Assembly (NCBI GenBank): GCA_964354105.1
Contig: CAYGXM010000001.1
Location: 85,392-149,391, forward strand
DNA length: 64,000 nt
From: Candidatus Woesearchaeota archaeon
GTDB taxonomy: Archaea; Nanobdellota; Nanobdellia; UBA10117
Direction of reading: 5' to 3'
Of the stretch, positions 43,552 to 64,000 are shown in pieces (the stretch's first letter is position 1; the number at the start of each line of letters is the position of its first letter). The position numbers and the translations under genes were made by a program. Under the pieces are notes generated by a model. That model was given only the letters and a program-made list of their open reading frames with translations. It was not told the origin of the DNA and searched no databases.

Positions 43552-45825
43552 ATGTCACAACCTGGAGAATTTCAAGTCAAGACAGAAGGTGGAATCAAAG
43601 TTCTTCGCATCAATTATGAGGGAGTTCTTTACACACCAAGCATAGAGGATGACCTAAACATAATGTCCAGAGTTTTTGACATTTTATTGGAAGTCGGCAA
43701 AGTAGGCAAAATCGTTTTCCTGCAGAGAGAAGAATATGAATATGATTGGGCGCAGGTGCGCTTGCTTTCAGAAGTAGTAGATGCTTACAAAAAATTAGTC
43801 CTGGAAGAAAATATTCTGGAAACGTCGAAGCTTGGAGCAACATCTGAATGCCAGAGATACATTCCCGGGTGGTATGATTTCTTAAGGGATACAATTATGC
43901 ACCAGCTGAAAGAAGATCCTATTGGAGCTTATGTTGAATTAGTGAGAAAGCATAGGGAGGAGTTGATAAAACAAAGAAATCCGCCAACTCCTGATTATGC
44001 GCTTTGTTCGCAAAGCTTCATCGAAATACTGCAGCACGCTATTGATGTAATAGGGAATACGGCTTTAATCAAAATATCCGCACAGCACCTGCCCGGCTTC
44101 AAGCCAGGGGACAGGACTTTATACAAACTGCACTTCAGGCCGGCGATTCGGCCTTATTTTGTTTATACAAAATTAGTTACCGAATATCCGACCGGAGCTG
44201 AAGAAATTGACAGTTATAGAATTGCAGAAGATACCGAAGTCCTGATTCTGAGAACACCGCAAGACCTCAGGCTAATTTACCACATAATTCCGCCGGAATT
44301 CAAGCTGACAGAAGAAAAGTATGCGCTCCTGACTGAAGCCAGAGAGGTAATGGCTGAGCACAGGCCGCAAAAGTCTGAATTTATAGACCCTGCAAGAACA
44401 AGGGAAATATTTCTGTCTGTTGAAAGGGATTTGATCCAAGATTTAGCAAGGAACAAAGGACTGAAATTAAATTATAAAGAATTAGAAGAGCTGGCAAGAA
44501 TCCTGCTTAGATATACAATAGGGTTTGGATTGATTGAAATCTTGCTTACAGATCCAAACATACAGGATGTTGTTGTCAATGCTCCGCTGGGAGCCAATCC
44601 TATTTCCATAATACACGGAGATTATGGCGAATGCCGGACAAACATCACGCCATTGACAAAAGAGGGAGAATCTTGGGCGACTAAGCTTCGCTTGATGAGC
44701 GGAAGGCCATTTGACGAGGCCAATCCCGTTTTAGACACAGACTTGTTACTGCCGGGTGCAAGGGCAAGAGTTGCAGCATTACAATCACCTTTATCGCCAT
44801 CAGGATTTGCATTTGCCTTCAGAAGACACAGAGATAAATCCTGGACGCTTCCATTGTTCATTAAAGCAGGCATGCTAACGCCATTAGCTGCAGGAATCAT
44901 TTCATTTTTAGTTGACGGTGCGCGCACAATTTTAGTAGCAGGAACAAGGTCTGCTGGAAAAACATCCCTGCTGGGCGCTTTGATGGTCGAGATTGCAAGG
45001 ACAAACAGGGTGCTTACGATTGAAGATACGCTGGAACTTCCTGTTGTACAGCTAAGACACCAGGGCTATGACATATTATCGATGAAGACTCGCTCGGTTA
45101 TAACAGGAGCAGAGGCAGAAGTTCCTGCAGAGCAAGCTATCAGAACTGCATTAAGATTAGGTGATTCCGCTTTAATAATTGGCGAAGTTAGAAGTGTTGA
45201 AGCAAGAGCTTTGTTTGAGGCCATGCGTGTAGGAGCCCTCGCAAAAGTTGTTGCAGGAACCATCCATGGAGATTCGCCTTATTCTGTATTTGATAGAGTT
45301 GTAAATGACCTTGGTGTTCCGAAAACAAGCTTCAAAGCCACAGATATAATTATGACTGCAAACACAATAACATCTCCGTCAGGCTTGGAGCGTTACAGGA
45401 GATTAGTAAATGTCTCAGAAATCAGGAAATTCTGGACAGAGGATCCTTTATTAGAAAAAGGTTTTGCAGACCTTTTGGTGTATGATGCAAAAACAGACAC
45501 CTTGCAGCCAACTGATGTGCTCCTAGAAGGTGAATCAGAAGTTCTAAAAGCAATTGGAGGCCGTGTTAAGGAATGGGCCGGCAACTGGGATGCAATCTGG
45601 GGCAACATAGAATTAAGGGCCAAGATAAAGCAAGCTTTAGTTGAAAATGCAGCAAAATCAAAACTTCCAGACATCCTGGAAGCGCCATTTGTGGTGGCAT
45701 CAAATGACGAATTCCACAGGCTGTCTGCAAAAGTTGCAGAAGAAGTAGGATTTACAGACCCTAAAAGAGTCTTTACAGAATGGAATAATTGGTTAAAGCA
45801 GCATGTAAAGAAGATGAAAGCATAA
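43552..45825 (+). CDS. type IV filament assembly ATPase (FlaI/ArlI-PilB-VirB11 superfamily) with long N-terminal extension
   Basis: Motifs GFGLIEILLTDPNIQDVVVN, Walker A AGTRSAGKTS, LTIEDTLEL, Walker B ALIIGEVRSVEA and His box AGTIHGDSP. Confidence 0.9.
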   Translation: MSQPGEFQVKTEGGIKVLRINYEGVLYTPSIEDDLNIMSRVFDILLEVGKVGKIVFLQREEYEYDWAQVRLLSEVVDAYKKLVLEENILETSKLGATSECQRYIPGWYDFLRDTIMHQLKEDPIGAYVELVRKHREELIKQRNPPTPDYALCSQSFIEILQHAIDVIGNTALIKISAQHLPGFKPGDRTLYKLHFRPAIRPYFVYTKLVTEYPTGAEEIDSYRIAEDTEVLILRTPQDLRLIYHIIPPEFKLTEEKYALLTEAREVMAEHRPQKSEFIDPARTREIFLSVERDLIQDLARNKGLKLNYKELEELARILLRYTIGFGLIEILLTDPNIQDVVVNAPLGANPISIIHGDYGECRTNITPLTKEGESWATKLRLMSGRPFDEANPVLDTDLLLPGARARVAALQSPLSPSGFAFAFRRHRDKSWTLPLFIKAGMLTPLAAGIISFLVDGARTILVAGTRSAGKTSLLGALMVEIARTNRVLTIEDTLELPVVQLRHQGYDILSMKTRSVITGAEAEVPAEQAIRTALRLGDSALIIGEVRSVEARALFEAMRVGALAKVVAGTIHGDSPYSVFDRVVNDLGVPKTSFKATDIIMTANTITSPSGLERYRRLVNVSEIRKFWTEDPLLEKGFADLLVYDAKTDTLQPTDVLLEGESEVLKAIGGRVKEWAGNWDAIWGNIELRAKIKQALVENAAKSKLPDILEAPFVVASNDEFHRLSAKVAEEVGFTDPKRVFTEWNNWLKQHVKKMKA

Positions 45826-45875
45826 CGCAGCTTCACAAACCTGGGGTGTAATGGGTTTCGCTGATGCTCAAGCCC

Positions 45876-45900
45876 ATAGAAAAGCCTTACAAACTCATAG
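45876..45900. repeat. repeat family 4, copy b (between the ATPase and platform genes)
   Basis: Sequence CCTTACAAACTCATAGAGCTTCAAAA. Confidence 0.65.
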
Positions 45901-45930: not shown

Positions 45931-47982
45931 ATGGCCGAACTGACACCTGAACAGAGAAAAACATTGTTTCTGAAATATAAGGACAAGATAGAGAAAGAAG
46001 TGGACCAGCCGGCTTCTATTAAAGAAGGCCCTAATGTAACATATTCTGAAGCTTATCAGATTTTCAAGAAAGAGCAAATTGACATCGGGCACAGCTTGTT
46101 TGAGCGTTTGTGTGCTGGCTCTGAAAAAGTGATAAAACTAAAACTGAAGCCTTCTGAAACAGAAAGGCTTCTGCCGTCCCTCGAGATGGCACACATCAGT
46201 GCAACTCCTGAAAGCGTGTATTCTTTCGCGACAATAACAACACTCATAGGAATAGTTCTTTCATTTGTATCCGGCTTGCTGCTCGGGAATTTTTACATAA
46301 TAATAATTGGGATGATAGCCTCTGCAGGAATTTTCTTTTACATTCCATCAATACCAAAAAGGATGTTTATGATATGGCGCTCAAAAGCTTCCGACCAGAT
46401 TGTCCTGGCAGTTTTGTATATGATAATTTACATGGAGCACACGCCTAATCTGGAGTTGTCAACATGGTTTGCCGCAAAACATCTTCCGCCACCACTCTCG
46501 CTTGATTTCATAAAAGTTCTTTGGGATGTCGAAACTAAAAAATACAGCAACATAACTACAGCACTAGAAGATTATATTGAAACATGGAGGGGCTGGGATG
46601 ACGCCTTTATCGATTCGATACATGTCTTGGAAACTGCATTATTTGCAGAAACAAAATCTGAAAGGTTAAAGACTTTGGAGAAGGCGGAAGAAATAATTTT
46701 AGATGGAACATATGACAAAATGCTGACATTTGCGCATAATCTGCAAAGCCCGATACAGACACTGCACATGCTTGGAACAGTTCTGCCAGTGATGGGCCTA
46801 GTAATGCTGCCCATGGTATCTGCTTTCATGGGCGCGTCAATAAAATGGTGGCATATCGCAATTCTCTATAACTTTTTATTGCCAATATCTGTTTATGCAT
46901 TGTCAAAATCTGTTCTGGCAATAAGGCCTGCAGGCGCAAATCCTGCAGATGTTTACATGCATCTAAGCCAAAAGTATCTGAAGCCAAAAATACCGCCGGC
47001 GCTTGTTGGCTTTGGCGTTTTTGCAGCAGTTGCAGCACCTGCAGTCGCCTATTTCACTATTATACAGCCTGCAGGAACAGAAGCCTTCACGACGATGCCA
47101 CTTTTGTTTTCAACTCTAGTTACTACAGCAATAGGGCTCGGGTTTGCAGCGTATTATTTCTACAAAATAAATCACCTGATTGCCATCAAGAAAAAAATAG
47201 CCCAAATCGAGAGCGAATTTGCAGCAGCGATTTTCCAGCTAGGAAACAAGATTGCACAAGGCGTTCCTGCAGAAGCGGCTATTTCAGCAGTTATGGAAGC
47301 CATGCCAAAAGCAGAAGTAACTGATTTCTTCAGAATCATCGATTATAACTTAAGAGAGCTTGGGATGAACTTGAAAGATGCAATCTTTGATGAAAAGAAA
47401 GGAGCATTGTCATTTTATCCTTCAGCCATAATAAAATCAGTTATGAATACGCTAGTTGAAGCTGCAAGAAAATCTCCAGAAATTGCTGCCGCTTCGCTGA
47501 TAACAATTTCAAAATATCTCACGAATGCACACAGAGTTAATGAAAGGCTTCAGGACTTGCTGGCAGATACAACTTCATCAATGTCAGCACAAATCAAAAT
47601 GTTTGCTCCAGTTATTTCAGGAATTGTTGTAGGCCTTTCAGCTTTAACAACATCAATCTTGTCAGATCTGGGAGACAAACTGAGAGGATTCGAAGCAGGC
47701 ACAGAGACGCAAGGCTTCGGCACCGGTTTATTGCAGGTTTTCCAGATAGAGCACATGCTTCCTGCTTATCAATTCCAGCTTATCGTCGGCGTATATTTGG
47801 TACAAATTGTTATTGTAATGTCTTTCCTGCTAAATGGAATAGTAAACGGGCCTGATAAAATAGAACAGGAGAACATGATGTCGAAGAATCTCATATTGGC
47901 AACATTATTCTATGCGGGTCTTACTGTGGCCACAACATTATTATTTGCGGGTCTCGTCGGTGACATAGTGGGGGTAATCTGA
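45931..47982 (+). CDS. type IV filament platform protein (FlaJ/ArlJ-TadC-PilC family)
   Basis: 683 aa and polytopic. Two cytoplasmic T2SSF-like helical domains, e.g. ESEFAAAIFQLGNKIAQGVPAEAAISAVMEAMP. Directly follows the ATPase gene. Confidence 0.8.
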   Translation: MAELTPEQRKTLFLKYKDKIEKEVDQPASIKEGPNVTYSEAYQIFKKEQIDIGHSLFERLCAGSEKVIKLKLKPSETERLLPSLEMAHISATPESVYSFATITTLIGIVLSFVSGLLLGNFYIIIIGMIASAGIFFYIPSIPKRMFMIWRSKASDQIVLAVLYMIIYMEHTPNLELSTWFAAKHLPPPLSLDFIKVLWDVETKKYSNITTALEDYIETWRGWDDAFIDSIHVLETALFAETKSERLKTLEKAEEIILDGTYDKMLTFAHNLQSPIQTLHMLGTVLPVMGLVMLPMVSAFMGASIKWWHIAILYNFLLPISVYALSKSVLAIRPAGANPADVYMHLSQKYLKPKIPPALVGFGVFAAVAAPAVAYFTIIQPAGTEAFTTMPLLFSTLVTTAIGLGFAAYYFYKINHLIAIKKKIAQIESEFAAAIFQLGNKIAQGVPAEAAISAVMEAMPKAEVTDFFRIIDYNLRELGMNLKDAIFDEKKGALSFYPSAIIKSVMNTLVEAARKSPEIAAASLITISKYLTNAHRVNERLQDLLADTTSSMSAQIKMFAPVISGIVVGLSALTTSILSDLGDKLRGFEAGTETQGFGTGLLQVFQIEHMLPAYQFQLIVGVYLVQIVIVMSFLLNGIVNGPDKIEQENMMSKNLILATLFYAGLTVATTLLFAGLVGDIVGVI

Positions 47983-48117: not shown

Positions 48118-48561
48118 ATGGCAGAATTCACGATGGAAAAAATGCTAATTATCATTCTAGTAATAATTGCCTTCATTTTGTTTGTAATCATACTTTCAAG
48201 ATTTAATGTTGCGCTTGACTTCTGGTATTTGGGATGCGAAGGCGATGTAGGTGGAGAATTAGTTCCAGGAAAAGGCTATGCAAATCCTATCTGCGACATT
48301 CTTTCAGAAAGAGATAATGTATCATGCGAAGTCACGACATATGAGAACATAACGAGAAAAGACGGGGAAGAACTAACCCTTTGCGTTTGGAGCTATTCGC
48401 CAGAGCTCATTGGGGGGAGGAACATTACCTGCTTCTTGAATGAAAGATTAAGCTGTGAGAATTTCAACCAAAAGACAAAGCCAAAATGCCAGGATGTTCC
48501 TGACTGCCTGCCAGTCTCAGCATTAAAAGTTATAGTGCACAGGCTTGCACCGTCGGAGTAA
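48118..48561 (+). CDS. N-terminally anchored Cys-rich extracellular protein
   Basis: TM segment MLIIILVIIAFILFVIILS followed by 9 Cys in a 110-aa ectodomain. Confidence 0.55.
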   Translation: MAEFTMEKMLIIILVIIAFILFVIILSRFNVALDFWYLGCEGDVGGELVPGKGYANPICDILSERDNVSCEVTTYENITRKDGEELTLCVWSYSPELIGGRNITCFLNERLSCENFNQKTKPKCQDVPDCLPVSALKVIVHRLAPSE

Positions 48562-48562: not shown

Positions 48563-49666
48563 ATGCAAAACAAAAACAAAAAAGGAGACATTACTGTTTC
48601 GGTGATATTTTTAATCGTACTTATAGCTGGTGGGCTTCTCGCAATATTTATTTTTGCTCCAATTCTCGCCGGAGCTTCACCAGCAGCAGCGGGCTTTAGC
48701 TGCGGCCTTAACATGCGAATAGACGCCGCAGTCATAGAAAACAGCAGGGTGCTTGGCAAGCCAGTCTTTGACGCGCCTATTTTTATGTGTGGCCAGTACA
48801 AAAAGCCTATTGACATAAATGCAAACAACTTCAAGGCCTGCCCTAGCATTTCTGATTTCTGCGAGAATGCGCAAAAAGGCTCTGCCTTGCAGGTTGAGTG
48901 CTGGAAGCAGTGTGCAAGAATCCAGATAGATAAATTGACAGACAGCTGCTGGACAATGGCTGGAAGCGGGAAATTAAATTTTGAAGACAGCTGGCTGGAT
49001 GGCTTTAAAGATATTGTATCAAATCCCTACACTCTTGGCGCAGTTATTGTCACGGGAGGCGTTGGGTGGTATGCAGGCGGAGCCCTGCTCGGCAAATTAG
49101 CAGTCGGCTCCACTTTCGTCATAGGCGGTTATTATTCAGGCACAGGGTCTAAAATACTGCGCTGTTATGAATACAGAATTGTAAATCCTATTGTCAGCCC
49201 GATTGACAAAAAGCCGATTAAATATCTTGACAATAGTTTAGGGCGCAGCTGGGCATATAGTTTAGAGTGCAGCTGTGACAATTGCACCAATCGCACTCTT
49301 TGCCCAAGCCTGATGAGCACACATCTTTGCAGGCCAACTGCTGAAGACCCAATGTGTTCTTTCGGCGGAACAGGCGTCTCGCACATTAATGAGATGGGTG
49401 AGCTAAAATATGTTATTAATGACAAGGATATAGCCACCCCTACTGATGATGTTGAATACCTTACAGGCGCAATTCTTAATTATAATATTACAGACCCCAA
49501 GAGCCAAATTTGCTACATTGCTTATCATCAGTCTAATGAAGGACCTAAAATTGAATACACCGATCCTGAGGGAAGTCACAGCGCAAAATTAAACAACAAG
49601 TATGTTGTCAGAAGCTGCAATTCGTGGAGCGCATATGCAGGCGGAGACGCCCACTTCATGAACTAA
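48563..49666 (+). CDS. pilin-like (class III signal-like) Cys-rich surface protein
   Basis: N-terminus MQNKNKKG|DITVSVIFLIVLIAGGLLAIFIF; about 20 Cys; a glycine-zipper-like second hydrophobic segment. Confidence 0.55.
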   Translation: MQNKNKKGDITVSVIFLIVLIAGGLLAIFIFAPILAGASPAAAGFSCGLNMRIDAAVIENSRVLGKPVFDAPIFMCGQYKKPIDINANNFKACPSISDFCENAQKGSALQVECWKQCARIQIDKLTDSCWTMAGSGKLNFEDSWLDGFKDIVSNPYTLGAVIVTGGVGWYAGGALLGKLAVGSTFVIGGYYSGTGSKILRCYEYRIVNPIVSPIDKKPIKYLDNSLGRSWAYSLECSCDNCTNRTLCPSLMSTHLCRPTAEDPMCSFGGTGVSHINEMGELKYVINDKDIATPTDDVEYLTGAILNYNITDPKSQICYIAYHQSNEGPKIEYTDPEGSHSAKLNNKYVVRSCNSWSAYAGGDAHFMN

Positions 49667-49716: not shown

Positions 49717-49760
49717 GTCTTAATGTCAGTAATGCCTAAGCTTAACGTTAAGGCTTAATC
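49717..49760. repeat. intergenic repeat family 1, partial copy d
   Basis: GTCTTAATGTCAGTAATGCCTAAGCTTAACGTTAAGGCTTAATC shares the TCTTAATGT..CAGTAA seed. Confidence 0.4.
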
Positions 49761-49766: not shown

Positions 49767-50927
49767 TTAAAGCTTAACTCTTAATTGAAATTCGTTTAGT
49801 ATTTTATCTATCTTGTTTGCAGTCTTATCCCAACTAAATTTCTCGGCGTGCTTTCTAACTTTTTTTGAATATGCTGAAGCGCCCTTTTTGGCTACTATTG
49901 CCAGCTTTTTTGCAATGTCTGCTGAATCTGGAAACGGCTTTTTTATGCCCTTAGAACTTATTTTATACTGTCCTATTTTAACTCTCAGCTCAGGCGTAAT
50001 CTCCAATAACTCCTTTGATGCGCCCCAATCCAGTCCTATTACAGGTGTGCCGCAAGCCATGGCTTCTAAAGCCGGCAGGCCGAAACCTTCTGCACTTGCA
50101 TTTAGGCAAACATCTGCCAAATTATAAAATAAAACAAGATCTTTTTCAGTATAAATGTTATTGATGTAGCGCTGCGGGTCGGGAAAAGCGCAATTTTTCC
50201 TCAAGCCCAATTGCGCAACCAGGTCGAATAATTTGAAATAGCCAATTGGATGCGCATGTATGTAAATTTTCACCTTTAAGTCTGGATTTTCATCAATAAA
50301 TTTCTTGATGCCTGTCAATTGTTCTATGTAAGCCTTGTTTGCAGCATTTTTCTGCACTATTATTATGAGAAATTCATCTTCTTTTACAAGCGAAGGCGCA
50401 AATTTTTTCCTTATCTCCGTTTTTGAAGCTCCGAGCGGCTTGTACAAAGAAGAATCAACACCGTGATAAACAAAATCCTTGACATTAGACAAATCTGATT
50501 TCAGTTTTTGTTTTGCCCATTTGCACATAGGTATTATTCCGTTTACGCATTTTAGTTTTTCAAAAACGAAATCAGGTATTGGTTCAAAATCTATGGGAAC
50601 AAGGGCCAGCCATTTTATCAGGCCTTTTTTTGCGAAATCATAGGTTTTATCAAAAACAGAGAAATCTGATTCTGTAAAATACAAATCTGCAGAAAAGCTT
50701 TTGTAAATTTTTAACAAAGAAACTTCTCCTGTAGGGATATCTTTATTTAAATCACCCTTGAATATCGGAATACTATTTATTTTATCCGGGAAAAATGTGG
50801 CAGACACTGGAGCATAAATCCCTATTTCATATTTTTTAGACAAGCGCTTTACCCAGATTTCATTTAAGCTTCGAGCATAGCCGGTGTTTAAGCTAGGATG
50901 GTCTTTATGGGATACTAATATTTTCAT
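49767..50927 (-). CDS. GT-B glycosyltransferase, family 4-like
   Basis: Motif EGFGLPALEAMACGTPVIG (Ex7E region). Confidence 0.8.
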   Translation of the reverse strand: MKILVSHKDHPSLNTGYARSLNEIWVKRLSKKYEIGIYAPVSATFFPDKINSIPIFKGDLNKDIPTGEVSLLKIYKSFSADLYFTESDFSVFDKTYDFAKKGLIKWLALVPIDFEPIPDFVFEKLKCVNGIIPMCKWAKQKLKSDLSNVKDFVYHGVDSSLYKPLGASKTEIRKKFAPSLVKEDEFLIIIVQKNAANKAYIEQLTGIKKFIDENPDLKVKIYIHAHPIGYFKLFDLVAQLGLRKNCAFPDPQRYINNIYTEKDLVLFYNLADVCLNASAEGFGLPALEAMACGTPVIGLDWGASKELLEITPELRVKIGQYKISSKGIKKPFPDSADIAKKLAIVAKKGASAYSKKVRKHAEKFSWDKTANKIDKILNEFQLRVKL

Positions 50928-50984: not shown

Positions 50985-51081
50985 GTGATTTTTCTATTCC
51001 TCAAATTCGCGATTAAGCGAGAGGCGTAAAAACCACAGGCTTCAGCCCGTGGAATCACCTCGAGCAGCGAATTTGAGTTAT
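50985..51081 (+). repeat. intergenic repeat family 3, long copy with ~60-nt structured insert
   Basis: GTGATTTTTCTATTCCTCAAATTCGC[...CCACAGGCTTCAGCCCGTGG...]GCGAATTTGAGTTAT. It has the same flanks as 4634..4673 and an 11-bp closing stem. Confidence 0.6.
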
Positions 51082-54640: not shown

Positions 54641-54711
54641 GTTAAATGTTAATGTCAGTAAATCATTATGTCGCATGCTGAATTAGAACTTAACACTTAG
54701 CCCTTTGCTCC
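54641..54711. repeat. intergenic repeat family 1, copy c (internally deleted)
   Basis: Sequence GTTAAATGTTAATG...TCATTATGTCGCATGCTGAATTAGAACTTAACACTTAGCCCTTTGCTC. Confidence 0.65.
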
Positions 54712-54760: not shown

Positions 54761-54776
54761 GTCAGATTTATATATC
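54761..54776 (+). promoter_or_regulatory. TATA-like promoter of pilin-like gene 54805
   Basis: GTCAGATTTATATATC; GAGGT Shine-Dalgarno-like sequence at 54795..54799. Confidence 0.45.
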
Positions 54777-55234: not shown

Positions 55235-55633
55235 ATGGCTAAAGGAGGCATTGACAGAAAGGGCCAGGGTTTGCCAATTAATCTTATTGTTATAGCCATA
55301 ATTGGAGTCATTGTATTATTGCTTGTTGTTGCTTTTGCAACAGGCACGTTAGGAAAATTATTTGGCGGCACTAAAGAATTGAGTGAATCAGTAACGCCAG
55401 AGCAAGTTGCAACATTCAGGATAGGATGCAAGCAGGCCTGCTTTGGTGCCCAGCAATTAGCAGATACGCCAGGCGAATGGAAGAAATCAGATTACTGCAA
55501 CAGAACAATAGGCGGGCAGCGTTGCTGGGAAATCGGCGCAGAATGCAGCAAGAATACAACAATTGAAGGCGTAAAGTGGTACTTTAATGCAACAGGCAAT
55601 AATCCTGGAGTAAATATAGCGGGATGTCAATAA
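55235..55633 (+). CDS. pilin-like protein (candidate major subunit), 6 Cys
   Basis: N-terminus MAKGGIDRKG|QGLPINLIVIAIIGVIVLLLVV. Shares the Cx3C...SDYC pattern with 54805..55191. Own TATA-like element. Confidence 0.7.
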   Translation: MAKGGIDRKGQGLPINLIVIAIIGVIVLLLVVAFATGTLGKLFGGTKELSESVTPEQVATFRIGCKQACFGAQQLADTPGEWKKSDYCNRTIGGQRCWEIGAECSKNTTIEGVKWYFNATGNNPGVNIAGCQ

Positions 55634-55863
55634 TCAATAACAAAAAAGGCAGTGCTAAGACTTCGCTTAGCAGGTCTTTCTTACCTCGTGGAAAGAAAGG
55701 CATAGAACTTACAATGCAGGTAATTGTAGTTATAATTATTCTTCTTGCACTTTTGGTTTTCCTGCTCGTGTTCTTGACAGGGCAGGGCGGCAAGCTGACA
55801 ACTTTATGGGACAATTTAGTCGGAACAAGCATTAACCAGACAAATATGTCTACACTGCCATGA
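55624..55863 (+). CDS. short pilin-like protein
   Basis: N-terminal region ...LPRGKKG|IELTMQVIVVIIILLALLVFLLVF; 79 aa. Confidence 0.5.
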   Translation: MSIINNKKGSAKTSLSRSFLPRGKKGIELTMQVIVVIIILLALLVFLLVFLTGQGGKLTTLWDNLVGTSINQTNMSTLP

Positions 55864-56876
55864 CGCGCAAAGGTATTATAGGTGCCATTATACTCGGTCT
55901 CATTGTTTTAGCCATAGTTCTTATTTTCTTTGCGGGTACAGTAATGCCTTTCTTGCAGAAAGCACCTGAAACTGGGCAGAAAACACTTTACTCGCTGCAG
56001 GGAATAGAGCCAGAGCCTTATTATGATGTAATTATAGACAGCTCTAAGAGCTACAGAGGGCACTTGGAATTTTCAGTCTTGGACCCTGAAGCTGATAAAT
56101 ACGTGACAGATTTTCCATTTCCGTCAGCATTTGAAGGCTTTTCAGTTTCTGAAGACAACAACCCTAGAAGGGTGCAAAGCGTTTCTTTATACAGAAATTT
56201 GTATATTGCAACAGCTTTTGAGGGCAAGCTTGCATTCGGCGACTGCAATACATCTTATCTAGAGAAAATGAAAGGGATACCATTCAACAATACACACATA
56301 GGATTTTTCCCGGGAGAAGGCTTCACAGGAGTATGCTCAGATACAAAGCAGAATTATCTTCAGGCAGTAAAAGATGCAACATATGCATTGCCAGCAGGCG
56401 GCGACAACTATAATGCTCTTGTTATAATTGCAGACGGCGACTGCACAATAAGCCCAGACTGCGATAATGGTTCTGAAGAGTATGATGAGCTGATTGGAGA
56501 TGCAGCAAAAGGCCTCAACAGGCAGGATGTACAAACAGCATTGATATTCACGACTAATGTAGCAAACTGCGTAAAAGATGGATCACTTATTAATTTCACA
56601 AGGGGTGCATTAGGTATTTCTGCTGAACAAGTTATAGATGCAAACACAGGTGCGGCATATTATAAGTCACCAGACGGCAGGAGGAGATGCGAGGGAATCA
56701 GTGATTCGAGCTATGAAAACCTTGCAACCACACTTCTCCCTGATGTAGCTAAAATAAAATTAAATTACGTACCTTATGCAGGTGAAGACGGCGTGTCTCA
56801 CACGATTGCTGTGCGCGCAACAAAAAAGCCCTACATGGGTAGGAATGAAATTGAGATTATATATGGTGTTGCTTAA
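55860..56876 (+). CDS. pilin-like N-terminus + 310-aa Cys-containing ectodomain
   Basis: N-terminus MTRKG|IIGAIILGLIVLAIVLIFF. ATGA overlap with the upstream gene. Confidence 0.55.
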   Translation: MTRKGIIGAIILGLIVLAIVLIFFAGTVMPFLQKAPETGQKTLYSLQGIEPEPYYDVIIDSSKSYRGHLEFSVLDPEADKYVTDFPFPSAFEGFSVSEDNNPRRVQSVSLYRNLYIATAFEGKLAFGDCNTSYLEKMKGIPFNNTHIGFFPGEGFTGVCSDTKQNYLQAVKDATYALPAGGDNYNALVIIADGDCTISPDCDNGSEEYDELIGDAAKGLNRQDVQTALIFTTNVANCVKDGSLINFTRGALGISAEQVIDANTGAAYYKSPDGRRRCEGISDSSYENLATTLLPDVAKIKLNYVPYAGEDGVSHTIAVRATKKPYMGRNEIEIIYGVA

Positions 56877-57312
56877 GAAAGGACAGGAAGGACCTGGCTG
56901 GATAATTGTACTTGTCTTAATGATTCTTATTGTAGTAGCATTCTGGACTTTTTTGTCACAGCTGGCGGGGGGAGCTCCGCTGGAAAAGGCATTGAATGAC
57001 GTAAAAGAATCAATAGAGACTGTCTGCCAAAAACCTATATCTAATTACAAGCAGGGCTTTGCAGTCATACCTGAAGGAAACAAAATAGAACTGGAAAAAC
57101 TTGGTGGCGTCCTTAATTATATGAAGGATTCGAATGTACTTGCAAAGAAAACCCTTGAATGCCCTGAAAACACTGTTTTTTCAAACTGCGTAATAGGGCC
57201 GACTAAATCAGGATGGGAAGGTGTGGTTTTCGGCGTGAACAAAACAATAAACATAACAACTGGACAGGCAAAAATAACTTTAAATGGGACAAACGTTACT
57301 TGTAGTGGCTGA
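56863..57312 (+). CDS. pilin-like protein
   Basis: N-terminus MVLLKKG|QEGPGWIIVLVLMILIVVAFW. The internal ATG is preferred over the ORF-track start at 56776. Confidence 0.55.
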   Translation: MVLLKKGQEGPGWIIVLVLMILIVVAFWTFLSQLAGGAPLEKALNDVKESIETVCQKPISNYKQGFAVIPEGNKIELEKLGGVLNYMKDSNVLAKKTLECPENTVFSNCVIGPTKSGWEGVVFGVNKTINITTGQAKITLNGTNVTCSG

Positions 57313-57848
57313 TGGCAAAGAGCATTATTATAGGCATTATTTTTGCATTGATAATGATTGGTTTTATGCTTATTATTGCTAACACATTTATTGCACAGCC
57401 GCTTATGGGCGGTGCAGAAGTGCAGGCTGCAGAAAGCATAGCGACAACATTAAATTCAGCCTGCATGCAAAACAAAGGCTACGTAACTGAACTCGCTGTG
57501 TTTTTGCCTGATTTCAAGAAAGGAGGAGGGCGCACGGAATATTTTTACATTGCAGTAAGTGATTATAATTTATTGCTGCGCGAAAGGAACCAGGCTGAAG
57601 ATATTGTCACGTCATTTATAGATTTTGCAACACAGAGGCCTGGGGAGGAAACAGTTGCAACATATCCGCTTAAGGCATGCAAGGACAAGGGCGTGCAGGT
57701 TTGTATATTATCATTTGACGCCAAAGAGAAAAAATGCAATAATTTCCAGTTTGAGTCCAATGAAGGTATGGAAATGATGACATTTACAGTAAACAGGACA
57801 TACGCCAAAGAAGTTGTCATGAATTATACGCGAGCTGCAAAAAGCTAA
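57312..57848 (+). CDS. N-terminally anchored protein (weak pilin-like)
   Basis: N-terminus MAKSIIIGIIFALIMIGFMLII; 178 aa. Confidence 0.5.
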   Translation: MAKSIIIGIIFALIMIGFMLIIANTFIAQPLMGGAEVQAAESIATTLNSACMQNKGYVTELAVFLPDFKKGGGRTEYFYIAVSDYNLLLRERNQAEDIVTSFIDFATQRPGEETVATYPLKACKDKGVQVCILSFDAKEKKCNNFQFESNEGMEMMTFTVNRTYAKEVVMNYTRAAKS

Positions 57849-57866: not shown

Positions 57867-57966
57867 TCTTAATGTTAATGACCGCTAGAACTTAATGCAT
57901 ATTAGCCAGCAAACTTTTCATTATGTCATGTGCTGAATTAGACCTTAACGATTAACCCTTTGCTCA
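57867..57966. repeat. intergenic repeat family 1, copy b (full length)
   Basis: The 5' half matches 41244..41335. The 3' half (TCATTATGTCATGTGCTGAATTAGACCTTAACGATTAACCCTTTGCTC) matches 54661..54711. Confidence 0.7.
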
Positions 57967-58037: not shown

Positions 58038-60329
58038 ATGAAGTCTAAGCGAGCTGTATCTGACCTAACCCTTATGATGGGTATAGTCATTGCAATAGCC
58101 ATACTTCTTATTGGCGGGATGGCTACTGTCATCAAGCTGGTTGAAGGCGAAGCAAGAGCAAGCCCAAGGTTTGTTGCTACCGATCTGGTTGCTATTATTA
58201 ATACTGTCCAAGCAGCTCCTGAAATAGCAATATTTGATTTCTTCACGCCCCAAGACGAAAACGGCTATCCAATAATAGGAAGCCTTGAGATAGATGATGA
58301 TGCAAGAAAGCTTTGCGTGAGCAAGAAAACAGAAGATGAAATCATAGGCTCGATAGCAGAATCCGCAGGCATCACAGCCTTCGGAACAGGAGGGCAGTAT
58401 GCCTACGAGACAACCAGGCAGAAATTCAGGACATTTTCGCAAAACAAGCTCATTGACAAGACTTTGCCAAGCCTCAAGGCCAAATATGGCGAAGGCATTC
58501 CTACAACACAGACCGGAAAACTCATATTTGCAAGCGACAATGCAGCAGCCACTGGCATGAAGAGGCTCATCAACAGCGATTTTAAAGTAGTAGATACGCC
58601 AGATATGATACGATTATCACACGCTAGGCATAGGCTTCTTGGGACGTATGATGGCATAGAAATTTTCGACAATGGTGTGGAAACAGCACTGTATCAGCAC
58701 ATAGTTGACGAGCAAGGGCGCAAAGACGTAAGGCTACTTGCAAAATATACTGGTAATCCTTTAATGTTAAAAGATGAAGCAAGGAAAATATCTAGATTTG
58801 CAAAATTTACAGATAGCCAAATGGATGAACTCGTTGATGACATAGATGTTTTGGTAAGAACAGATGGTATAAAAGCGTTTGACAGTAGAACAGAACTAAT
58901 TAGCGGCAATGCTCTCCCTGCTGGTGTGAGAACTAATCTAAAAGACGTTGTTAACGATCTTCATAACGTTGACATTGCGGTTAGCATAGACCCAGAAGCA
59001 AATACGTTGTATAAAGGCGCGACAAAAATACCTAAATGGAAGCTTTGGACGCGATTTAAAAATTGGCGTTCTGCCCGCAGTGCAAATGTTGCCAAAACAG
59101 CAATAGGCATGGAAGCAGGCAAATTCCAGAGAATGAAGGCTTATGGTGGCACAATAATAAGCGGCGTGACAATCATAGCATCTGTTGTTGCTATAGGTTA
59201 TGTTAGCGGAGACTGGAATGAAGCAATTATACAAAGCGCCATACCTTCTATCCTAGCTTTTTCAAGGTCTTTTATCGAAACCGGCGCTTATAAGATATTT
59301 CGTGCATTGATAAGGACAAAAGCGGCGGCGGGTGTGGCAGGAGCAGGCGATAAAGTAGAAGACACTGCTGTCTGTGCAGCCCCTCCTGGTGCAGATGTTG
59401 TAGTTGGTTTAGGCATAAGAGCTGCAAAGGCCACAATCATATTCGCAGATTCATTATACACTACAGCATTAATGGATTGGTGGCTTATAGGCATATATAA
59501 TGGAGCATCAAGTGCTGTCAGCAAAGAAAAGGCAGCAATAGACTGTGAGTCTTTCACGTCAACAAAAAAAGTTCTTCTGACGCCTCCTAATTGCGCTATT
59601 GATTTGGAGGATGGGCCTGCTGTCAAGGAATTAGGGCCATCGTTTAAGGCGCTCGAAGTACAAGTTGGAACTTTAATTGCAACTGTCACTGGCTTGAGCA
59701 TTGTCTGCGCAATGCCAGGCAAAGTGTGCTGCGGTGCTAGGTTTCCAATATACATGGGTACGGTAATGCCACAACTTATTTTGATAGGGGCAAACATATA
59801 TACAAATCAGGATAAATATGCGAAACTTGTAACATCTCCAAGTGATATTATTCCAAGAACTTCATGCAAGCCAACGCCAAATTTAAAAACAGATACGTGC
59901 GACAGGACTTATCTTCAACAGGATTGTCCGAATTGGTATATTTCTGATCCAGGTCTTGGCTCTGTTGCTGCCGGTGCAGTTCTTTTGGAATTAATTAACG
60001 CAGGGCCTGCCTGTGCAGCATTCTCTTGGCTTGGGCTTGTCACGCCTGCCTGCAACATGGGTAGGTATATTGGGATGACTGTTTTGCTTGTAACATTTCC
60101 TGGACAGCTTACAGGTGCAATGCTCCAAGGTTATCAGGTTGGCTTTACCAAAAGCAAAATATCTGCCAAGCCTGCTCCTGAATTAGGCCTGACAGAAGCA
60201 GAATTTGCAGACAATGAAGGCTTCTGGTATGCAGAAATGCCTTTTGCCATAGAATTTACAAAAATTTATACAGACAATACAACATCATTGGACTCGAGGT
60301 CAGGCCATTTCGTAATAAGGAAAGCATAA
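58038..60329 (+). CDS. 763-aa protein: pilin-like N-terminus + soluble domain + polytopic Gly/Ala/Cys-rich membrane region
   Basis: N-terminus MKSKRA|VSDLTLMMGIVIAIAILLIGG, followed later by at least 5 hydrophobic segments. Confidence 0.55.
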   Translation: MKSKRAVSDLTLMMGIVIAIAILLIGGMATVIKLVEGEARASPRFVATDLVAIINTVQAAPEIAIFDFFTPQDENGYPIIGSLEIDDDARKLCVSKKTEDEIIGSIAESAGITAFGTGGQYAYETTRQKFRTFSQNKLIDKTLPSLKAKYGEGIPTTQTGKLIFASDNAAATGMKRLINSDFKVVDTPDMIRLSHARHRLLGTYDGIEIFDNGVETALYQHIVDEQGRKDVRLLAKYTGNPLMLKDEARKISRFAKFTDSQMDELVDDIDVLVRTDGIKAFDSRTELISGNALPAGVRTNLKDVVNDLHNVDIAVSIDPEANTLYKGATKIPKWKLWTRFKNWRSARSANVAKTAIGMEAGKFQRMKAYGGTIISGVTIIASVVAIGYVSGDWNEAIIQSAIPSILAFSRSFIETGAYKIFRALIRTKAAAGVAGAGDKVEDTAVCAAPPGADVVVGLGIRAAKATIIFADSLYTTALMDWWLIGIYNGASSAVSKEKAAIDCESFTSTKKVLLTPPNCAIDLEDGPAVKELGPSFKALEVQVGTLIATVTGLSIVCAMPGKVCCGARFPIYMGTVMPQLILIGANIYTNQDKYAKLVTSPSDIIPRTSCKPTPNLKTDTCDRTYLQQDCPNWYISDPGLGSVAAGAVLLELINAGPACAAFSWLGLVTPACNMGRYIGMTVLLVTFPGQLTGAMLQGYQVGFTKSKISAKPAPELGLTEAEFADNEGFWYAEMPFAIEFTKIYTDNTTSLDSRSGHFVIRKA

Positions 60330-60871
60330 TGAAAATGAAAATAAATAAGAAGGGTGTAGAACAGCCGCAAGTAATTGTATATGTAATCTTTGTAATCATT
60401 CTTACAATAGCAGGAATTTATGTTTCATTTACCAAATTAGGCGGAGTTGATATAACTTTTGAATTCCATGATTTTGCCTCGCGGCTTAATGTTGTTTCAA
60501 CAAAACTGATGTTCACGCCTGAATGCTATGCAGTAGAAAGTAATTACACTGCCGAAGATAAAATTTTGCATTACCAGATAAATGGCGGAATAATCGACTT
60601 GGCAAAATTCAACAAGACAAATACAAACATAATAGATTCAAAATGCCTGTCAGGAGAGAAACAAGTCTGGGCAAGCCTGAAAGAAATTAACAAAGCGTAT
60701 AATGAAACAGTGTGGAGCTGTCCCGGCGGAAGAACTTCCTGTACAGAGCCTTTATGGAATGAAAGAACGGATTCAACATTGTGGAACAAGCAAAAACGCT
60801 CTTTTTTCGTCTTGATTAAAAACGGAAACAAGCTTGACAAGGGAATACTCACGGTGCAGATGAAAGAATAA
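60329..60871 (+). CDS. pilin-like protein
   Basis: N-terminus MKMKINKKG|VEQPQVIVYVIFVIILTIAGIYV. Its start overlaps the upstream stop codon. Confidence 0.55.
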   Translation: MKMKINKKGVEQPQVIVYVIFVIILTIAGIYVSFTKLGGVDITFEFHDFASRLNVVSTKLMFTPECYAVESNYTAEDKILHYQINGGIIDLAKFNKTNTNIIDSKCLSGEKQVWASLKEINKAYNETVWSCPGGRTSCTEPLWNERTDSTLWNKQKRSFFVLIKNGNKLDKGILTVQMKE

Positions 60872-60872: not shown

Positions 60873-61730
60873 ATGGCAGAAATTAAAAACAAAAGCAGGA
60901 AAGGAAGCGCGGACCTGCTCATAGAAATAATTTTCTCGGCAATTGTCTTCTTTGTAGTTACTATAATTGTTTTTGGCCTGCAGATACCCCAGCAGGAATT
61001 CAAGGCGAGAGCAATTGTGGTCTCTGCAGACTCTGCTGTTGCCTGCGACCTTTCACTAACAAATATGCTGAGGGCAAATACCAGCACAGGCATAACTTAC
61101 AGCGACTGGCTGATGAATGAATATGTAGTTGGAAATGACATCAATGCAAGCGCGTCAGGCAGCTGGAAAAGCATCATGGCCGGTTACCTTGACCAAACAT
61201 TTTCATCGGGGAAATGGGTCATGAACATAACACTGCCAAATGGCACAGTTTTGTTGAACATGGGGGAGCTTAAGGGCAATCCTCCTCTAGAAGCAATTTT
61301 TACATGCATGAATTACGTACCTTATCCTGCAGCTTATTCACAGTATTTCTGCTTCCCAGACATTCCTGAATTTACAGATATAACAAGTGGAAACAAAATA
61401 GCCAAGTTCAAGACGCCTGAAGGAGAAGATGTAGAGTGCGTTATTAATATCAAGCCACGGCTTGAGGTAAAAGCCGCTGCAAAATGCAAGCTTGACCTAG
61501 CAGCTAAAAATCCATTCGAGGAAGATCTGCTGTATTATATTGAAAACACAGACGGCTTGAATGACTCCATTACTTTGCCCATTACAGTTGCGAATTCAGA
61601 TTATACTATAACAGTTTACGAGACAGTTGACGGCCTAAAGGCAAATGCTATTCTAAGAAGAAGCTCCCTGCTTGAGGACTGCTCATTGCACGCAGTCCTG
61701 AAAATAACAAACATATCTGCTCAAATCTAA
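60873..61730 (+). CDS. pilin-like protein
   Basis: N-terminus MAEIKNKSRKG|SADLLIEIIFSAIVFFVVTIIVF. Confidence 0.55.
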   Translation: MAEIKNKSRKGSADLLIEIIFSAIVFFVVTIIVFGLQIPQQEFKARAIVVSADSAVACDLSLTNMLRANTSTGITYSDWLMNEYVVGNDINASASGSWKSIMAGYLDQTFSSGKWVMNITLPNGTVLLNMGELKGNPPLEAIFTCMNYVPYPAAYSQYFCFPDIPEFTDITSGNKIAKFKTPEGEDVECVINIKPRLEVKAAAKCKLDLAAKNPFEEDLLYYIENTDGLNDSITLPITVANSDYTITVYETVDGLKANAILRRSSLLEDCSLHAVLKITNISAQI

Positions 61731-61737
61731 ACGTAAA

Positions 61738-62883
61738 ATGGCACAACAAAAAATAAGGTCGAAAAAAGGACAAGGCCTGGGCTTTGTAGCCGTAATTATA
61801 ATGATAGCGCTGCTTTATTTTGTCTTCAGGTACAACACAGAGGCTTACGAATTTGTTATGGCTGCAGGCCAGCAGCAGGCGCATCTCGTAACAAGCTATG
61901 TTGAAACAGAGAAGGCAAAATTCTTTTCAGAGACTGCAATGGAACAAGCAGCTTATGAAACTGCCTGGAAATTTGGAGCGGCAAACTGCAGCAACTTTAC
62001 AGCAAAAATCTGCAGCAAAAAAGATGATTTTATTGAGAATACCACTGTAATATTTTATGAATATCTTGCTAGATATTCGCCGGGCGTAATTGATTTAGAC
62101 ACATATTTCCCCGATTACAGATTTAGAATAAATAAGTGCGACAAAAATGGAATGGAAATAGAAGCATTTGGCTTTGATGAAAGCTGCTGGCTAAGGCCCG
62201 ATTATCCATTCCCTGAATCTGCCTGCCTTGACCAGGAAAATTCAGAAGACTGTCAAGCAGTCAAGTTTACAGATAAGAAAACAGGCGCGTGCAAGTGGAA
62301 CGATACGGGAAAAGCAAATACCAGTTATTGCTATGAGACAAAACCAGCACCGGACTGCGAATCGATAATTAATAGCGCTAATTGCACAGCCAAAAAGGAT
62401 TTGTTTAACAAGGCAGCATGCTATTGGGAAACATCTTATGCAGAGAACATCAACATCCTGTCGATATCTTTGTCAAATTACCAGTTTGGCATAGATTCTG
62501 ACGCACATTTCATAGAAAATATAGACTGCAAGGGCTATGATGCTTTTGTGGCGACAAGGAAAAACATACAGGCCTTCAGGCCGGTGTGCTCTGTTAAAGT
62601 AGAGCCGCTGACTGGCAACACAACAGACACTTTCATATTTACAATTACTTACAAAGGGGAAACAGAGCCAACATTGAATTTTGGAATATTAAATTCAACA
62701 GGCTCTGAAATCAAAAAACCGAAGTTAGACGAAACAGATAGTACTGATAAGATATATCTTGACGGGAAAACTTATACTGCCGGAAGCTTATTTGCTAGCG
62801 CAGGCAAGTATACTGCAAAAATAAGCTGCAAGGACACTTATGGCAGAACGGATGATGATTCGAAGTCATTCACGGTAACTTAA
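61738..62883 (+). CDS. pilin-like N-terminus + Cys-rich domain + C-terminal Ig/PKD-like domain
   Basis: N-terminus MAQQKIRSKKG|QGLGFVAVIIMIALLYFVF; about 17 Cys. The C-terminus AGKYTAKISCKDTYGRTDDDSKSFTVT looks like a beta-sandwich. Confidence 0.6.
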   Translation: MAQQKIRSKKGQGLGFVAVIIMIALLYFVFRYNTEAYEFVMAAGQQQAHLVTSYVETEKAKFFSETAMEQAAYETAWKFGAANCSNFTAKICSKKDDFIENTTVIFYEYLARYSPGVIDLDTYFPDYRFRINKCDKNGMEIEAFGFDESCWLRPDYPFPESACLDQENSEDCQAVKFTDKKTGACKWNDTGKANTSYCYETKPAPDCESIINSANCTAKKDLFNKAACYWETSYAENINILSISLSNYQFGIDSDAHFIENIDCKGYDAFVATRKNIQAFRPVCSVKVEPLTGNTTDTFIFTITYKGETEPTLNFGILNSTGSEIKKPKLDETDSTDKIYLDGKTYTAGSLFASAGKYTAKISCKDTYGRTDDDSKSFTVT

Positions 62884-62891
62884 GGTTAAAA

Positions 62892-64000
62892 ATGAAAAAA
62901 GGAGCAGTGTCGCAAATCGGGGGCATGTTACTTGTACTGGTCGTGCTCATAGCTGCTTTTATAATATTTTTCGCATTCCAGAGAGGGGCATTCTTCCAGG
63001 AAAAAGTTCAGATTTACCAGGCAATTGAATCAACAGGCGACCTTCCATGCTACAAGGCGCCCGTAGTTTCAATAAACCCTGTAACTTTGATTAGTCCAAA
63101 TGTAAAAGACACTGTAAATCTAAGCGCTTCATTGGGCTCAAGCTGTTTCGAGGCTCTTGACGTGCAGTGGGATTTTAAAGATATAAATCCGCCAGGCACA
63201 GGAACGATAGTAAAGAATGAATGCACTTTTAGTGCAGAGAATAACATTTATGGTATATACAACAATACTACAAACGAGTTTAACCCATTTGGCTGTTCCA
63301 AATTAAATCACACATATAATGCTGAAACAAAGGATATCTGGCAGACTTTTCCAATCACAGTGTCTGCCTTTGGCCTGCGCTCAGGCTCTTATACTGCAGC
63401 AGAAAGCAGCGGCTTTGTAAAAGACCCACTGTTTAAAGTGATTAATACTTCTAAAGTTGATGCAAGTGATTTTTCATGCATAAAGCTGCAAGTTGGAATA
63501 GAACATACAAATATAGCCAACGGCAAGAAAGCAGTCATAAAAGATCCAGGTGCTGAAGATATTTCCCTTGAGTTGTTTGACAAAAGCAAGCTGATAGAGA
63601 TGGAGCATGTTGCTCCGACACCTTCTGTCAGCTCAACAGATATAATTTACAGGGCACCCTGGCAGTCTGGCAACCATAGCATTACATTGACTGCAACAAA
63701 GCAATACCAGACTACAAAGCCTCTGGAGTTAAGCTATGATGTTATATTAGGGCAGAAAACAACAGGAAGGCCTGAAGCAGTTGTGCTAAGAGGCGGAACG
63801 GCAGCAGGAGACATAGGCGTTTACAGTACAAAAGCTCCATATTCATCAGCCCCGATAAACGGAAGCCTGTTTCCTGATGCTGGCGGACATGACCAGAAAG
63901 ATTTCAGCATAGCTGACTTGGATAAGGATAGGGTTGGAGAATTTATTTTCCTAATTGCCTCGGAAACTGACAACGTAAAAGGGCACATACTTGTGCAATC
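62892..64000 (+). CDS. pilin-like N-terminus + PKD-like and FG-GAP/VCBS-like segments (3' partial, runs off the window)
   Basis: No stop codon from ATG 62892 to the window end; absent from the ORF track. N-terminus MKKG|AVSQIGGMLLVLVVLIAAFIIFF. PKD-like VQWDF...LNHTYNAE...FPITVSA. FG-GAP-like DFSIADLDKDRVGEFIF. Confidence 0.6.
   Translation, partial: MKKGAVSQIGGMLLVLVVLIAAFIIFFAFQRGAFFQEKVQIYQAIESTGDLPCYKAPVVSINPVTLISPNVKDTVNLSASLGSSCFEALDVQWDFKDINPPGTGTIVKNECTFSAENNIYGIYNNTTNEFNPFGCSKLNHTYNAETKDIWQTFPITVSAFGLRSGSYTAAESSGFVKDPLFKVINTSKVDASDFSCIKLQVGIEHTNIANGKKAVIKDPGAEDISLELFDKSKLIEMEHVAPTPSVSSTDIIYRAPWQSGNHSITLTATKQYQTTKPLELSYDVILGQKTTGRPEAVVLRGGTAAGDIGVYSTKAPYSSAPINGSLFPDAGGHDQKDFSIADLDKDRVGEFIFLIASETDNVKGHILVQ

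Follow-up and report, generated by a model that had tools for sequence, protein, structure and literature searches.

Host recognition and attachment by DPANN archaea are an open question, and all cultivated DPANN require cell contact. In their account of conserved surface loci (Fig. 4), Hamm et al. (2024; PMC11291902) describe two type IV pilus (T4P)-like loci with a CpaF-like ATPase, TadC, and coiled-coil proteins in cluster-2 DPANN, spanning Woese-, Pace-, Nano-, Aenigm-, and Nanohaloarchaeota. That account reports proteomic evidence for expression of the locus proteins in Ca. Nanohaloarchaeum antarcticus, leaves their function untested, and likens the coiled-coil proteins to the viral attachment protein sigma-1. 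Makarova, Wolf and Koonin (2019; PMC6393860, Fig. 2A) show DPANN islands with a FlaI-type ATPase, TadC, and "dark matter" proteins with signal peptides, read there as diverse, fast-evolving pilins; Makarova et al. (2016; PMC4858521) were unable to identify the pilins that go with nanoarchaeal ATPases. The preprint of He et al. (2020; 10.1101/2020.05.14.094862) states that T4P components are missing from DPANN. A classification of archaeal type IV filament (TFF) systems (Sivabalasarma and Albers, 2026, preprint; 10.64898/2026.04.22.720090) deals with DPANN only briefly, and argues that binding proteins with class III signals widely functionalise archaeal TFF machineries. Here, we analyze a locus of this type in a stretch of 64,000 nucleotides (the window) of a Candidatus Woesearchaeota archaeon (assembly GCA_964354105.1, contig CAYGXM010000001.1, positions 85,392 to 149,391 of the forward strand). 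The locus combines an assembly ATPase, a platform protein, and, behind them, an array of genes for proteins with class III-like, i.e., prepilin-like, N-termini; coordinates are those of the window.

The best explanation of these genes is the T4P-like locus conserved in cluster-2 DPANN, carried here by a Woesearchaeota-like genome. We consider it likely that the locus encodes a type IV filament machine, and that the array proteins are its class III substrates. In this outline the results agree with an earlier reading of the window, made without database searches (the original prediction), which had proposed a type IV filament-type locus with an ATPase, a platform, and many class III-like proteins. 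Gene calls, starts, and N-termini were verified for the open reading frames of 43552-64000, and all of them, with their start codons, lie where that reading had placed them; array genes beyond 64000 were read on L082, which belongs to the same assembly. Relatives of the ATPase were collected in a scan with one genome per species, which gave 165 stretches; 80 loci were kept, and labels such as L002, L003, L005, L006, L063, and L066 denote related loci among them. The nearest ATPase relatives come from Woesearchaeota/Nanoarchaeia metagenome-assembled genomes (MAGs), at 86, 79, and 78% identity, in line with a DPANN origin of the window. The remaining relatives come from Woese-, Pace-, Aenigmat-, Nanohalo-, Parv-, and Nanoarchaeota MAGs at about 48-57% identity, and throughout the 80 DPANN loci the orthologues align across the full 757 residues, N-terminal extension included.

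The ATPase (757 aa; 43552-45825, + strand) is a divergent type IV filament assembly ATPase of the GspE/FlaI/CpaF type, with an N-terminal extension of ~290 aa and a C-terminal extension. The motifs quoted in the original prediction are all found in its product: Walker A GTRSAGKTS (aa 464-472), Asp box LTIEDTLEL (488-496), Walker B ALIIGEVR (540-547), and His box AGTIHGDSP (568-576). It matches Pfam T2SSE directly (5e-15; 55.4 bits, cutoff 24.9), and the closest solved ATPases in PDB are Archaeoglobus GspE (2OAP, 1e-28), CpaF (3e-23), and FlaI (9e-19). The following gene (45931-47982, + strand) encodes a polytopic protein of 683 aa with ~8 hydrophobic segments. The protein itself has no direct match in Pfam, NCBIfam, or PDB, and a search of the platform profile against PDB sequences is also empty. 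Since 14 of the 44 platform orthologues from related loci match Pfam T2SSF (best 2.3e-8), and the ATPase adjoins in 63 loci, we assign it as a divergent platform of the TadC/FlaJ type; the identity given to it earlier is thus recognisable through the orthologues only. An internal duplication of the platform, with two T2SSF halves, was considered and rejected (hhalign, no signal, probability 0.1).

The best NCBIfam matches of the ATPase are the models of TadA ("conjugal transfer-associated"; 4e-38) and of the FlaI equivalog (NF058587; 5e-36), and DPANN depend on imported nucleotides; these facts could speak for an archaellum used in motility, or for an apparatus of DNA transfer or uptake, and not for an adhesive pilus. 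However, both scores are far under the cutoffs (131.4 vs 373 bits for TadA; 124.5 vs 550 bits for FlaI), the latter setting the protein apart from bona fide ArlI. Products of 43552-64000 show no Pfam match to archaellin, KaiC-type (ArlH), ArlF/G, relaxase, VirB4/VirD4, or ComEC families, which confirms the absence of archaellum components seen earlier in this interval; the ATPase has the platform and coiled-coil genes as neighbours, and nothing ArlH-like adjoins it; and the small subunits of the array are Cys-rich, unlike archaellins. A motility or DNA-handling apparatus is therefore, in our estimate, scarcely credible.

The class III-like character of the array was assessed at two levels of stringency. 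A first scan asked for [KR][GA] with a 16-residue stretch of mean hydropathy >= 1.9 starting no more than a few residues later; 11 of the 19 called genes downstream of the platform are positive, compared with 2 of 63 (both weak) elsewhere in the window. The stricter test was applied to database gene calls, considered only proteins with an N-terminal hydrophobic helix, and required [KR][GA] within -1 to +4 residues of the helix; the background set was drawn from the window and, in related loci, from the sequence upstream of the ATPase. Here, 15 of 17 array proteins are positive vs 9 of 179 background proteins (Fisher p=1.5e-14), hence the proposed run of prepilin-like genes stands; it is unusually long, with at least 15 highly divergent members in the array. 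In the related loci, the motif is seen in 91 of 176 helix-bearing proteins downstream of the pair and in 8 of 168 upstream. Most array proteins have 3-6 polar residues between the putative cleavage site (shown below by an arrow) and the helix, often with Asp/Glu at +1 to +3. All N-termini quoted in the original prediction are present; among its weaker cases, 54311 (MRG↓DAPWW) and 54487 (KKG↓DIWYG) are good once the correct starts are used, and 57312 is without [KR][GA].

Array proteins longer than ~80 aa all have an even number of Cys residues, at a Cys content of 1.4-5.4% vs 0.82% in the background, and N-X-S/T sequons are enriched in most of them. Due to the even Cys counts, the raised Cys content, and the sequon enrichment, the ectodomains look extracellular. 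The PKD/Ig-like ectodomains suggested earlier are confirmed by no Pfam match.

Contrary to what had been supposed, a long array is no peculiarity of the window. Directly past the platform, 4-10 class III-like genes (counted within 10 kb) are found in ~17 of the 44 loci whose downstream flank is 7 kb or longer; the other loci of the 44 have the ATPase/platform pair alone, with no such array behind. The gene order of the array is kept in the closest relatives (L002, L003, and L006). Array proteins are 28-50% identical to those of the closest relatives, vs 69-79% for the ATPase and the platform; the mini-proteins 54487 and 55624 are exceptions, at 65-82%.

A link between such arrays and a prepilin peptidase is seen in two relatives. 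When 68 polytopic proteins of the 80 loci are screened with Pfam, two prove to be Peptidase_A24 members, of 277 aa (L063:19073-19906; 41.2 bits) and 283 aa (L066:20153-21004; 40.2 bits; cutoff 26.5 in both cases), each on the same strand as the array. Both have the active-site motif GGDAK and consist of a ~125-aa catalytic N-terminal part and a C-terminal extension. In these loci, from Woesearchaeota MAGs with the same ATPase family, the peptidase is the last gene of the equivalent array, 7-10 genes with like N-termini that include tandem KRG↓QGLS pilins. As far as gene order can indicate, this position of the peptidase is the strongest argument for reading the arrays as sets of putative class III substrates.

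The candidate major pilins are encoded in tandem on the + strand. The product of 54805-55191 (128 aa, SKG↓QGLPLSFIVIAAIS) has six Cys residues conserved in the family alignment, and its paralogue from 55235-55633 (132 aa, RKG↓QGLPINLIVIAII) is 36% identical to it, with the same pattern of six Cys. A word-index search with this family yields 30 clusters, all "hypothetical" and without Pfam domains. In the family alignment, QGLP...I.V.A.I...L is invariant (Q7, G8, L9, P10) and the six Cys are conserved, the head being otherwise variable. A profile search of 1.84 billion representatives finds 920 clusters at E<=1e-3, of which 212 reach E<=1e-10; nearly all are 110-200 aa long. Among the best 150 family members, 107 have Q[GS][LI][PS] near the N-terminus, and of these 105 have K/R at -2 and 104 have G/A/S at -1; the median leader in the family is 5 residues, and the Cys count is even in 145 of the 150, six being commonest. 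Tandem QGL-type pilins also recur in L066. The AlphaFold2 (AF2) model of 54805 (31 sequences, monomer) has a pLDDT of 78, with a predicted transmembrane (TM) helix at residues 12-32, a Gly-rich break, and a compact head at pLDDT 84-89. Four further proteins, of 50-79 aa, have the size of Flp (54311, 54487, 55624, and a 65-aa gene beyond the window); each consists of a leader, a helix, and a short tail, and these mini-pilins are alternative candidates for the filament body.

We infer the following mechanism. An A24 prepilin peptidase encoded elsewhere in the genome would remove the leaders, and the ATPase/platform pair would extract the helices from the membrane and polymerise them into a surface filament. 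The body of the filament would most likely be formed by small subunits, i.e., the tandem QGLP pilins 54805/55235 and/or the mini-pilins of 50-79 aa. The larger Cys-rich proteins (150-760 aa), mostly sequon-rich, may enter as minor or tip "modular pilins" displaying fast-evolving ectodomains, and the most likely role of the filament would be adhesion to a surface or a host cell.

Several points weigh against such a filament machine. No array protein matches Pfam at E<=0.1, the Class_III_signal and archaellin families included; NCBIfam yields no match for the pilin-like proteins at E<=1; and only one of 15 array proteins (48563) fits a FlaFind-type regular expression. There is no A24 peptidase in the window, as already noted in the original prediction, either by Pfam or by tblastn with the L063 and L066 peptidases (window and L082). 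The modelled head of 54805 is helix-rich, with disulfides, where known pilins have a beta-sandwich or an alpha-beta roll; a Foldseek search with this model gives no PDB match of E<7, a weak negative for a monomer model built from 31 sequences. It is a genuine caveat that the predicted head thus cannot be recognised as the fold of a pilin or an archaellin. The major subunit is still at the candidate level (54805/55235 and/or the mini-pilins), and to our knowledge no filament has been observed for any Woesearchaeote. Finally, host or surface attachment is a plausible role, suggested by the size and variability of the ectodomains, by the DPANN lifestyle, and by faint matches to Kelch and FG-GAP families.

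If the downstream genes encoded ordinary signal-anchor or Sec-secreted proteins, gathered in a "surface protein island" without being handled by the machine, the failure of all curated class III models would fit; Sec signals, too, have a basic n-region and then a hydrophobic helix. However, 15 of 17 array proteins have [KR][GA] right at the helix, vs 5% of other helix-bearing proteins, and the same arrangement stands beside the same ATPase/platform pair in ~17 loci; moreover, an A24 peptidase closes the array in two loci, and positions -2/-1 are conserved family-wide. We regard a mere island of surface proteins as very improbable. The expectation that most of these open reading frames would pass class III prediction fails formally for the curated models, while the comparative evidence favours class III processing of the array proteins despite the lack of a curated-model match.

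More weight falls on a surface-display or pseudopilus system, bindosome-like in principle and proposed as an alternative in the original prediction. It would form a short stub, or class III-processed proteins would merely be extracted and positioned in the envelope; the large ectodomains would be envelope-anchored binding or scavenging proteins, not parts of a long pilus. Most array members do have large, diverse ectodomains, the 54805 model is without a continuous long alpha-1 helix or a canonical pilin head, and binding proteins with class III signals are seen as widespread on archaeal TFF machineries (10.64898/2026.04.22.720090). Against this, the defining parts of a bindosome are missing: the array has no substrate-binding-protein or ABC-transporter domain by Pfam, and the ATPase scores 54.8 bits with the NCBIfam BasE model, vs a cutoff of 1000. 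Further, a near-invariant QGLP N-terminal helix over ~920 clusters exceeds the need of a passive anchor. A display system is fairly unlikely on this evidence.

The filament machine could also be seen in a wider sense, with the DPANN module and its hypervariable modular class III array acting together as a dedicated host-interaction machine. Host specificity would be set by exchangeable, fast-evolving ectodomains shown on the filament; proteins like 58038 would be delivered to, or inserted in, the host envelope, helping to form a cell-cell bridge; and the QGLP pilins, with a modelled helix-rich disulfide head unlike solved pilins, would form a new filament class. With all these parts included, such a machine is distinctly unlikely.

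The array starts with two Cys-rich proteins. The first (48118-48561, + strand; 8 Cys, 5.4% Cys) has an N-terminal helix from MAEFTMEK without a [KR][GA] leader; it is kept at the same position in L002, L003, L005, and L006, and similarly placed proteins of L063 and L066 start with MELTISQLIK and MAELTIGQLIK. The second (48563-49666, + strand) is class III-like (KKG↓DITVSV), with 16 Cys and orthologues in 6-7 loci. Then follows, on the - strand, a GT4 glycosyltransferase gene (49767-50927; Pfam Glycos_transf_1, 3e-12). As it has no homologue in any related locus and lies in a local GC dip (0.365 vs about 0.41), it is probably a recent insertion and not a conserved part of the locus. A GC-rich hairpin (51033-51052) is seen between this gene and the next one (51121-54279, + strand), which encodes a Kelch/beta-propeller-like putative surface protein of 1052 aa with a C-terminal TM segment (1010-1028) and no class III N-terminus. 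Its Kelch/beta-propeller Pfam matches, at residues 298-476, are sub-threshold, and it has homologues in L002 and L003. An N-terminal signal is lacking in this protein; its first 250 residues are hydrophilic, with a weakly hydrophobic stretch around residue 250. The interspersed Kelch-like giant, GT4 gene, and repeat elements of the original prediction are thus all found, the Kelch assignment by sub-threshold Pfam matches only.

The next genes are all on the + strand. Three are mini-pilin-like: 54311-54490 (59 aa, MRG↓DAPWWAFLAAVII), a helix with a short tail and of Flp-like size, which resembles the 57- and 49-aa genes after the platform in L063 and L066 (KKG↓VVADYLPW and KRG↓IVSDYLPW); 54487-54639 (50 aa, KKG↓DIWYGYIIMII), 65-67% identical to the copies in L002 and L003; and, behind the tandem QGLP pilins, 55624-55863 (79 aa, GKKG↓IELTMQVIVVII), 71-82% identical to the L002 and L006 copies and the best-conserved gene of the array. 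By their N-terminal pattern, 55860-56876 (338 aa, TRKG↓IIGAIILG) and 56863-57312 (149 aa, LKKG↓QEGPGWIIV) are class III-like. A vWA/MIDAS adhesin was considered for 55860 (DSSKS, IIADGD) and rejected, as the motif is not kept in orthologues and a PDB profile search is empty. The product of 57312-57848 (178 aa, MAK↓SIIIGII) is N-terminally anchored, has no G/A at -1, and is a weak case, with orthologues in L002 and L006.

The remaining genes, again on the + strand, are mostly longer. The large class III-like protein of 58038-60329 (763 aa, KRA↓VSDLTL) has at least two further hydrophobic segments and 12 Cys; just eight homologues are found besides itself, and its AF2 model is unreliable (pLDDT 48.5). 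The N-terminal pattern is also seen in 60329-60871 (180 aa, NKKG↓VEQPQVIVYV), 60873-61730 (285 aa, SRKG↓SADLLIEII), and 61738-62883 (381 aa, SKKG↓QGLGFVAVII, 14 Cys). The class III-like gene at 62892-64000 (MKKG↓AVSQIGG) is cut by the window end and is 710 aa in full on L082; its product has a weak FG-GAP-like repeat (FG-GAP_3, E=0.011, below cutoff). The array runs beyond the window end: on L082 a 65-aa gene (KNKKG↓LELVWW) and then a gene of at least 324 aa (NRRG↓VTQSIM) follow, up to the end of the contig.

The original prediction was right on the array and the ATPase/platform pair, and overlooked the conserved upstream genes of 40583-43244; the conserved core is wider, with two coiled-coil proteins and two 5-TM paralogues accompanying the ATPase across DPANN. 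The 5-TM membrane proteins are encoded on the + strand, at 40583-41194 (203 aa), with homologues 1.5-3.7 kb upstream of the ATPase in 41 of 80 loci, and at 41378-41974 (198 aa), a paralogue with homologues in 34 of 80; the homologues usually occur in 2-3 tandem copies per locus. Neither window copy belongs to a Pfam family, and the conserved motif of the family is G..D..LPFLL.F...L.K..FG. They were considered as divergent prepilin peptidases and rejected: neither an Asp pair nor GxGD is conserved in an alignment of 93 sequences (91 locus homologues and the two window copies), and no A24 match is seen among 45 members. The other polytopic proteins of the window are M50, VTT/DedA, acyltransferase-like, and GT2 proteins.

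Two coiled-coil proteins are encoded on the - strand, at 42086-42730 (214 aa; homologues in 54 of 80 loci, ~1.0-1.7 kb upstream of the ATPase, on the opposite strand) and at 42735-43244 (169 aa; homologues in 53 of 80 loci, directly upstream of and divergent from the ATPase). The order of the 214-aa coiled-coil gene (-), the 169-aa coiled-coil gene (-), the ATPase (+), and the platform (+) is kept in 53-63 of 80 loci, from Woese-, Pace-, Aenigm-, Nanohalo-, and Nanoarchaeota MAGs. Pfam gives only generic coiled-coil matches, and four members touch DUF7310. Both proteins have no hydrophobic or TM segment, no signal peptide, and no Cys (maximum 19-aa hydropathy of 0.53 for 42086), and hence are predicted to be cytoplasmic. 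By analogy with scaffolds of the ArlX/ArlCDE type, which they resemble in position, they might, as a guess, form part of a cytoplasmic base. By gene content and order, they correspond to the coiled-coil proteins in the account of Hamm et al. (2024; PMC11291902); a cytoplasmic location would be at odds with the sigma-1-like viral attachment protein proposed there.

Several MAG records with a DPANN-type ATPase locus are labelled "uncultured Methanosarcinales" (L014, L016, L023, L024, L026, L027, and others), and one (L069) is labelled "Campylobacterales bacterium". These labels are probably binning or taxonomy-label errors; alternatively, the records are possibly DPANN contigs co-binned with hosts.

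The array is divided into ~4 transcription units, that of 54805 having its own consensus TATA box (TTTATATA at 54767, 38 nt upstream) and a GAGGT Shine-Dalgarno sequence, as expected for a gene predicted to be strongly expressed. The two large gaps between array genes each contain a copy of a 48-nt direct repeat, placed 70-140 nt ahead of the 54805 sub-operon (copy 1, 54663-54710) and the 58038 sub-operon (copy 2, 57918-57965); the copies are 85% identical, and the core TGCTGAATTAGANCTTAAC occurs twice only in the window. A conserved RNA or operator was considered for it and rejected: since the repeat is absent from related loci, it is a genome-specific element, either a shared regulatory or a duplicated promoter-proximal one. 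The motif TTAATGTCAGTAA is found exactly at 49720-49732 (after 48563-49666) and 54649-54661 (after 54487-54639), just past the stop codons of sub-operons, with degenerate copies in the 57869 region and at 41246-41258; it is not significant as a motif (5 observed vs 3.15 expected at <=2 mismatches). An Rfam scan of the window finds three tRNAs and nothing else. Further envelope genes of the same genome encode an S-layer protein (20243-22480; Pfam S_layer_C, 9e-17; NCBIfam S_layer_MJ) and a PgaC/IcaA-like GT2 polysaccharide synthase (23424-24749).

The locus is neither an archaellum nor, in the strict sense, a bindosome. Like the Sulfolobus bindosome (BasEF and BasABC), it would pair a TFF ATPase and platform with class III-signal proteins other than classic pilins; unlike the bindosome, it has no sugar-binding proteins or ABC transporters, besides the low BasE score. 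With the bacterial Tad/Flp pilus it shares CpaF among the closest solved ATPases (3e-23) and Flp-sized subunits, but it is archaeal and lacks a secretin, a TadB/TadC pair, and the Flp G/XXXXEY motif. Gram-positive T4P include "modular pilins" (e.g., Streptococcus sanguinis PilB), in which a large functional ectodomain is joined to a pilin N-terminus. Here, too, pilin-type N-termini are seen on large ectodomains, although the vWA module proposed for 55860 is not supported.

In the Epd pilus of Methanococcus maripaludis, Gln is found at +1 after KG in some subunits. The Epd pilus (TFF "system 1"; 10.64898/2026.04.22.720090) is similar to the locus in being encoded by a multi-gene operon (11 genes) with several pilin-like proteins, and its major pilin has no globular head and is comparable in size to the mini-pilins. 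The differences are that Epd has two platform genes, where here there is one, of 683 aa; that it has a dedicated 9-TM peptidase, EpdA, where here no peptidase is encoded in the locus and the A24 peptidases of L063 and L066 have 277-283 aa; and that the Epd-type DUF361/Class_III_signal domain (PF04021) is unmatched here, while coiled-coil and 5-TM accessory genes are present.

The closest counterparts remain the published DPANN loci. The machine is uncharacterised, as the original prediction held, in that it has no experimental characterisation, but it is not of an undescribed kind, this locus type being present in PMC6393860 and, in its account of T4P-like loci, PMC11291902. The islands of Makarova et al. 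(2019; PMC6393860) are a one-paragraph, figure-level prediction without statistics, family definitions, peptidase linkage, or accessory genes. The loci of Hamm et al. (2024; PMC11291902) agree with ours, by gene content and order, in the CpaF/FlaI-like ATPase, TadC, two adjacent coiled-coil proteins, and the same taxa; as pilins, that account of the loci names FlaF/PilA only, in one locus, and the long class III-like array, the QGLP family, and the 5-TM paralogues do not figure in it. The present data contradict the claim that DPANN lack T4P components (He et al., 2020; 10.1101/2020.05.14.094862), and correct the view that the pilins are unidentifiable (Makarova et al., 2016; PMC4858521). The locus is thus a well-resolved, unusually complete example of a DPANN locus type that has been described bioinformatically and never characterised experimentally, and it exemplifies the one surface machine conserved across cluster-2 DPANN. 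Its value lies in a parts list and testable predictions, and not in a new principle or a new kind of system. To the known systems it adds a large unannotated pilin family ([KR][G/A]↓QGLP, six Cys, ~920 clusters), overlooked by current annotation pipelines, together with Flp-sized mini-pilins, the physical linkage of such arrays to an A24 peptidase in relatives, and the 5-TM and coiled-coil accessory families.

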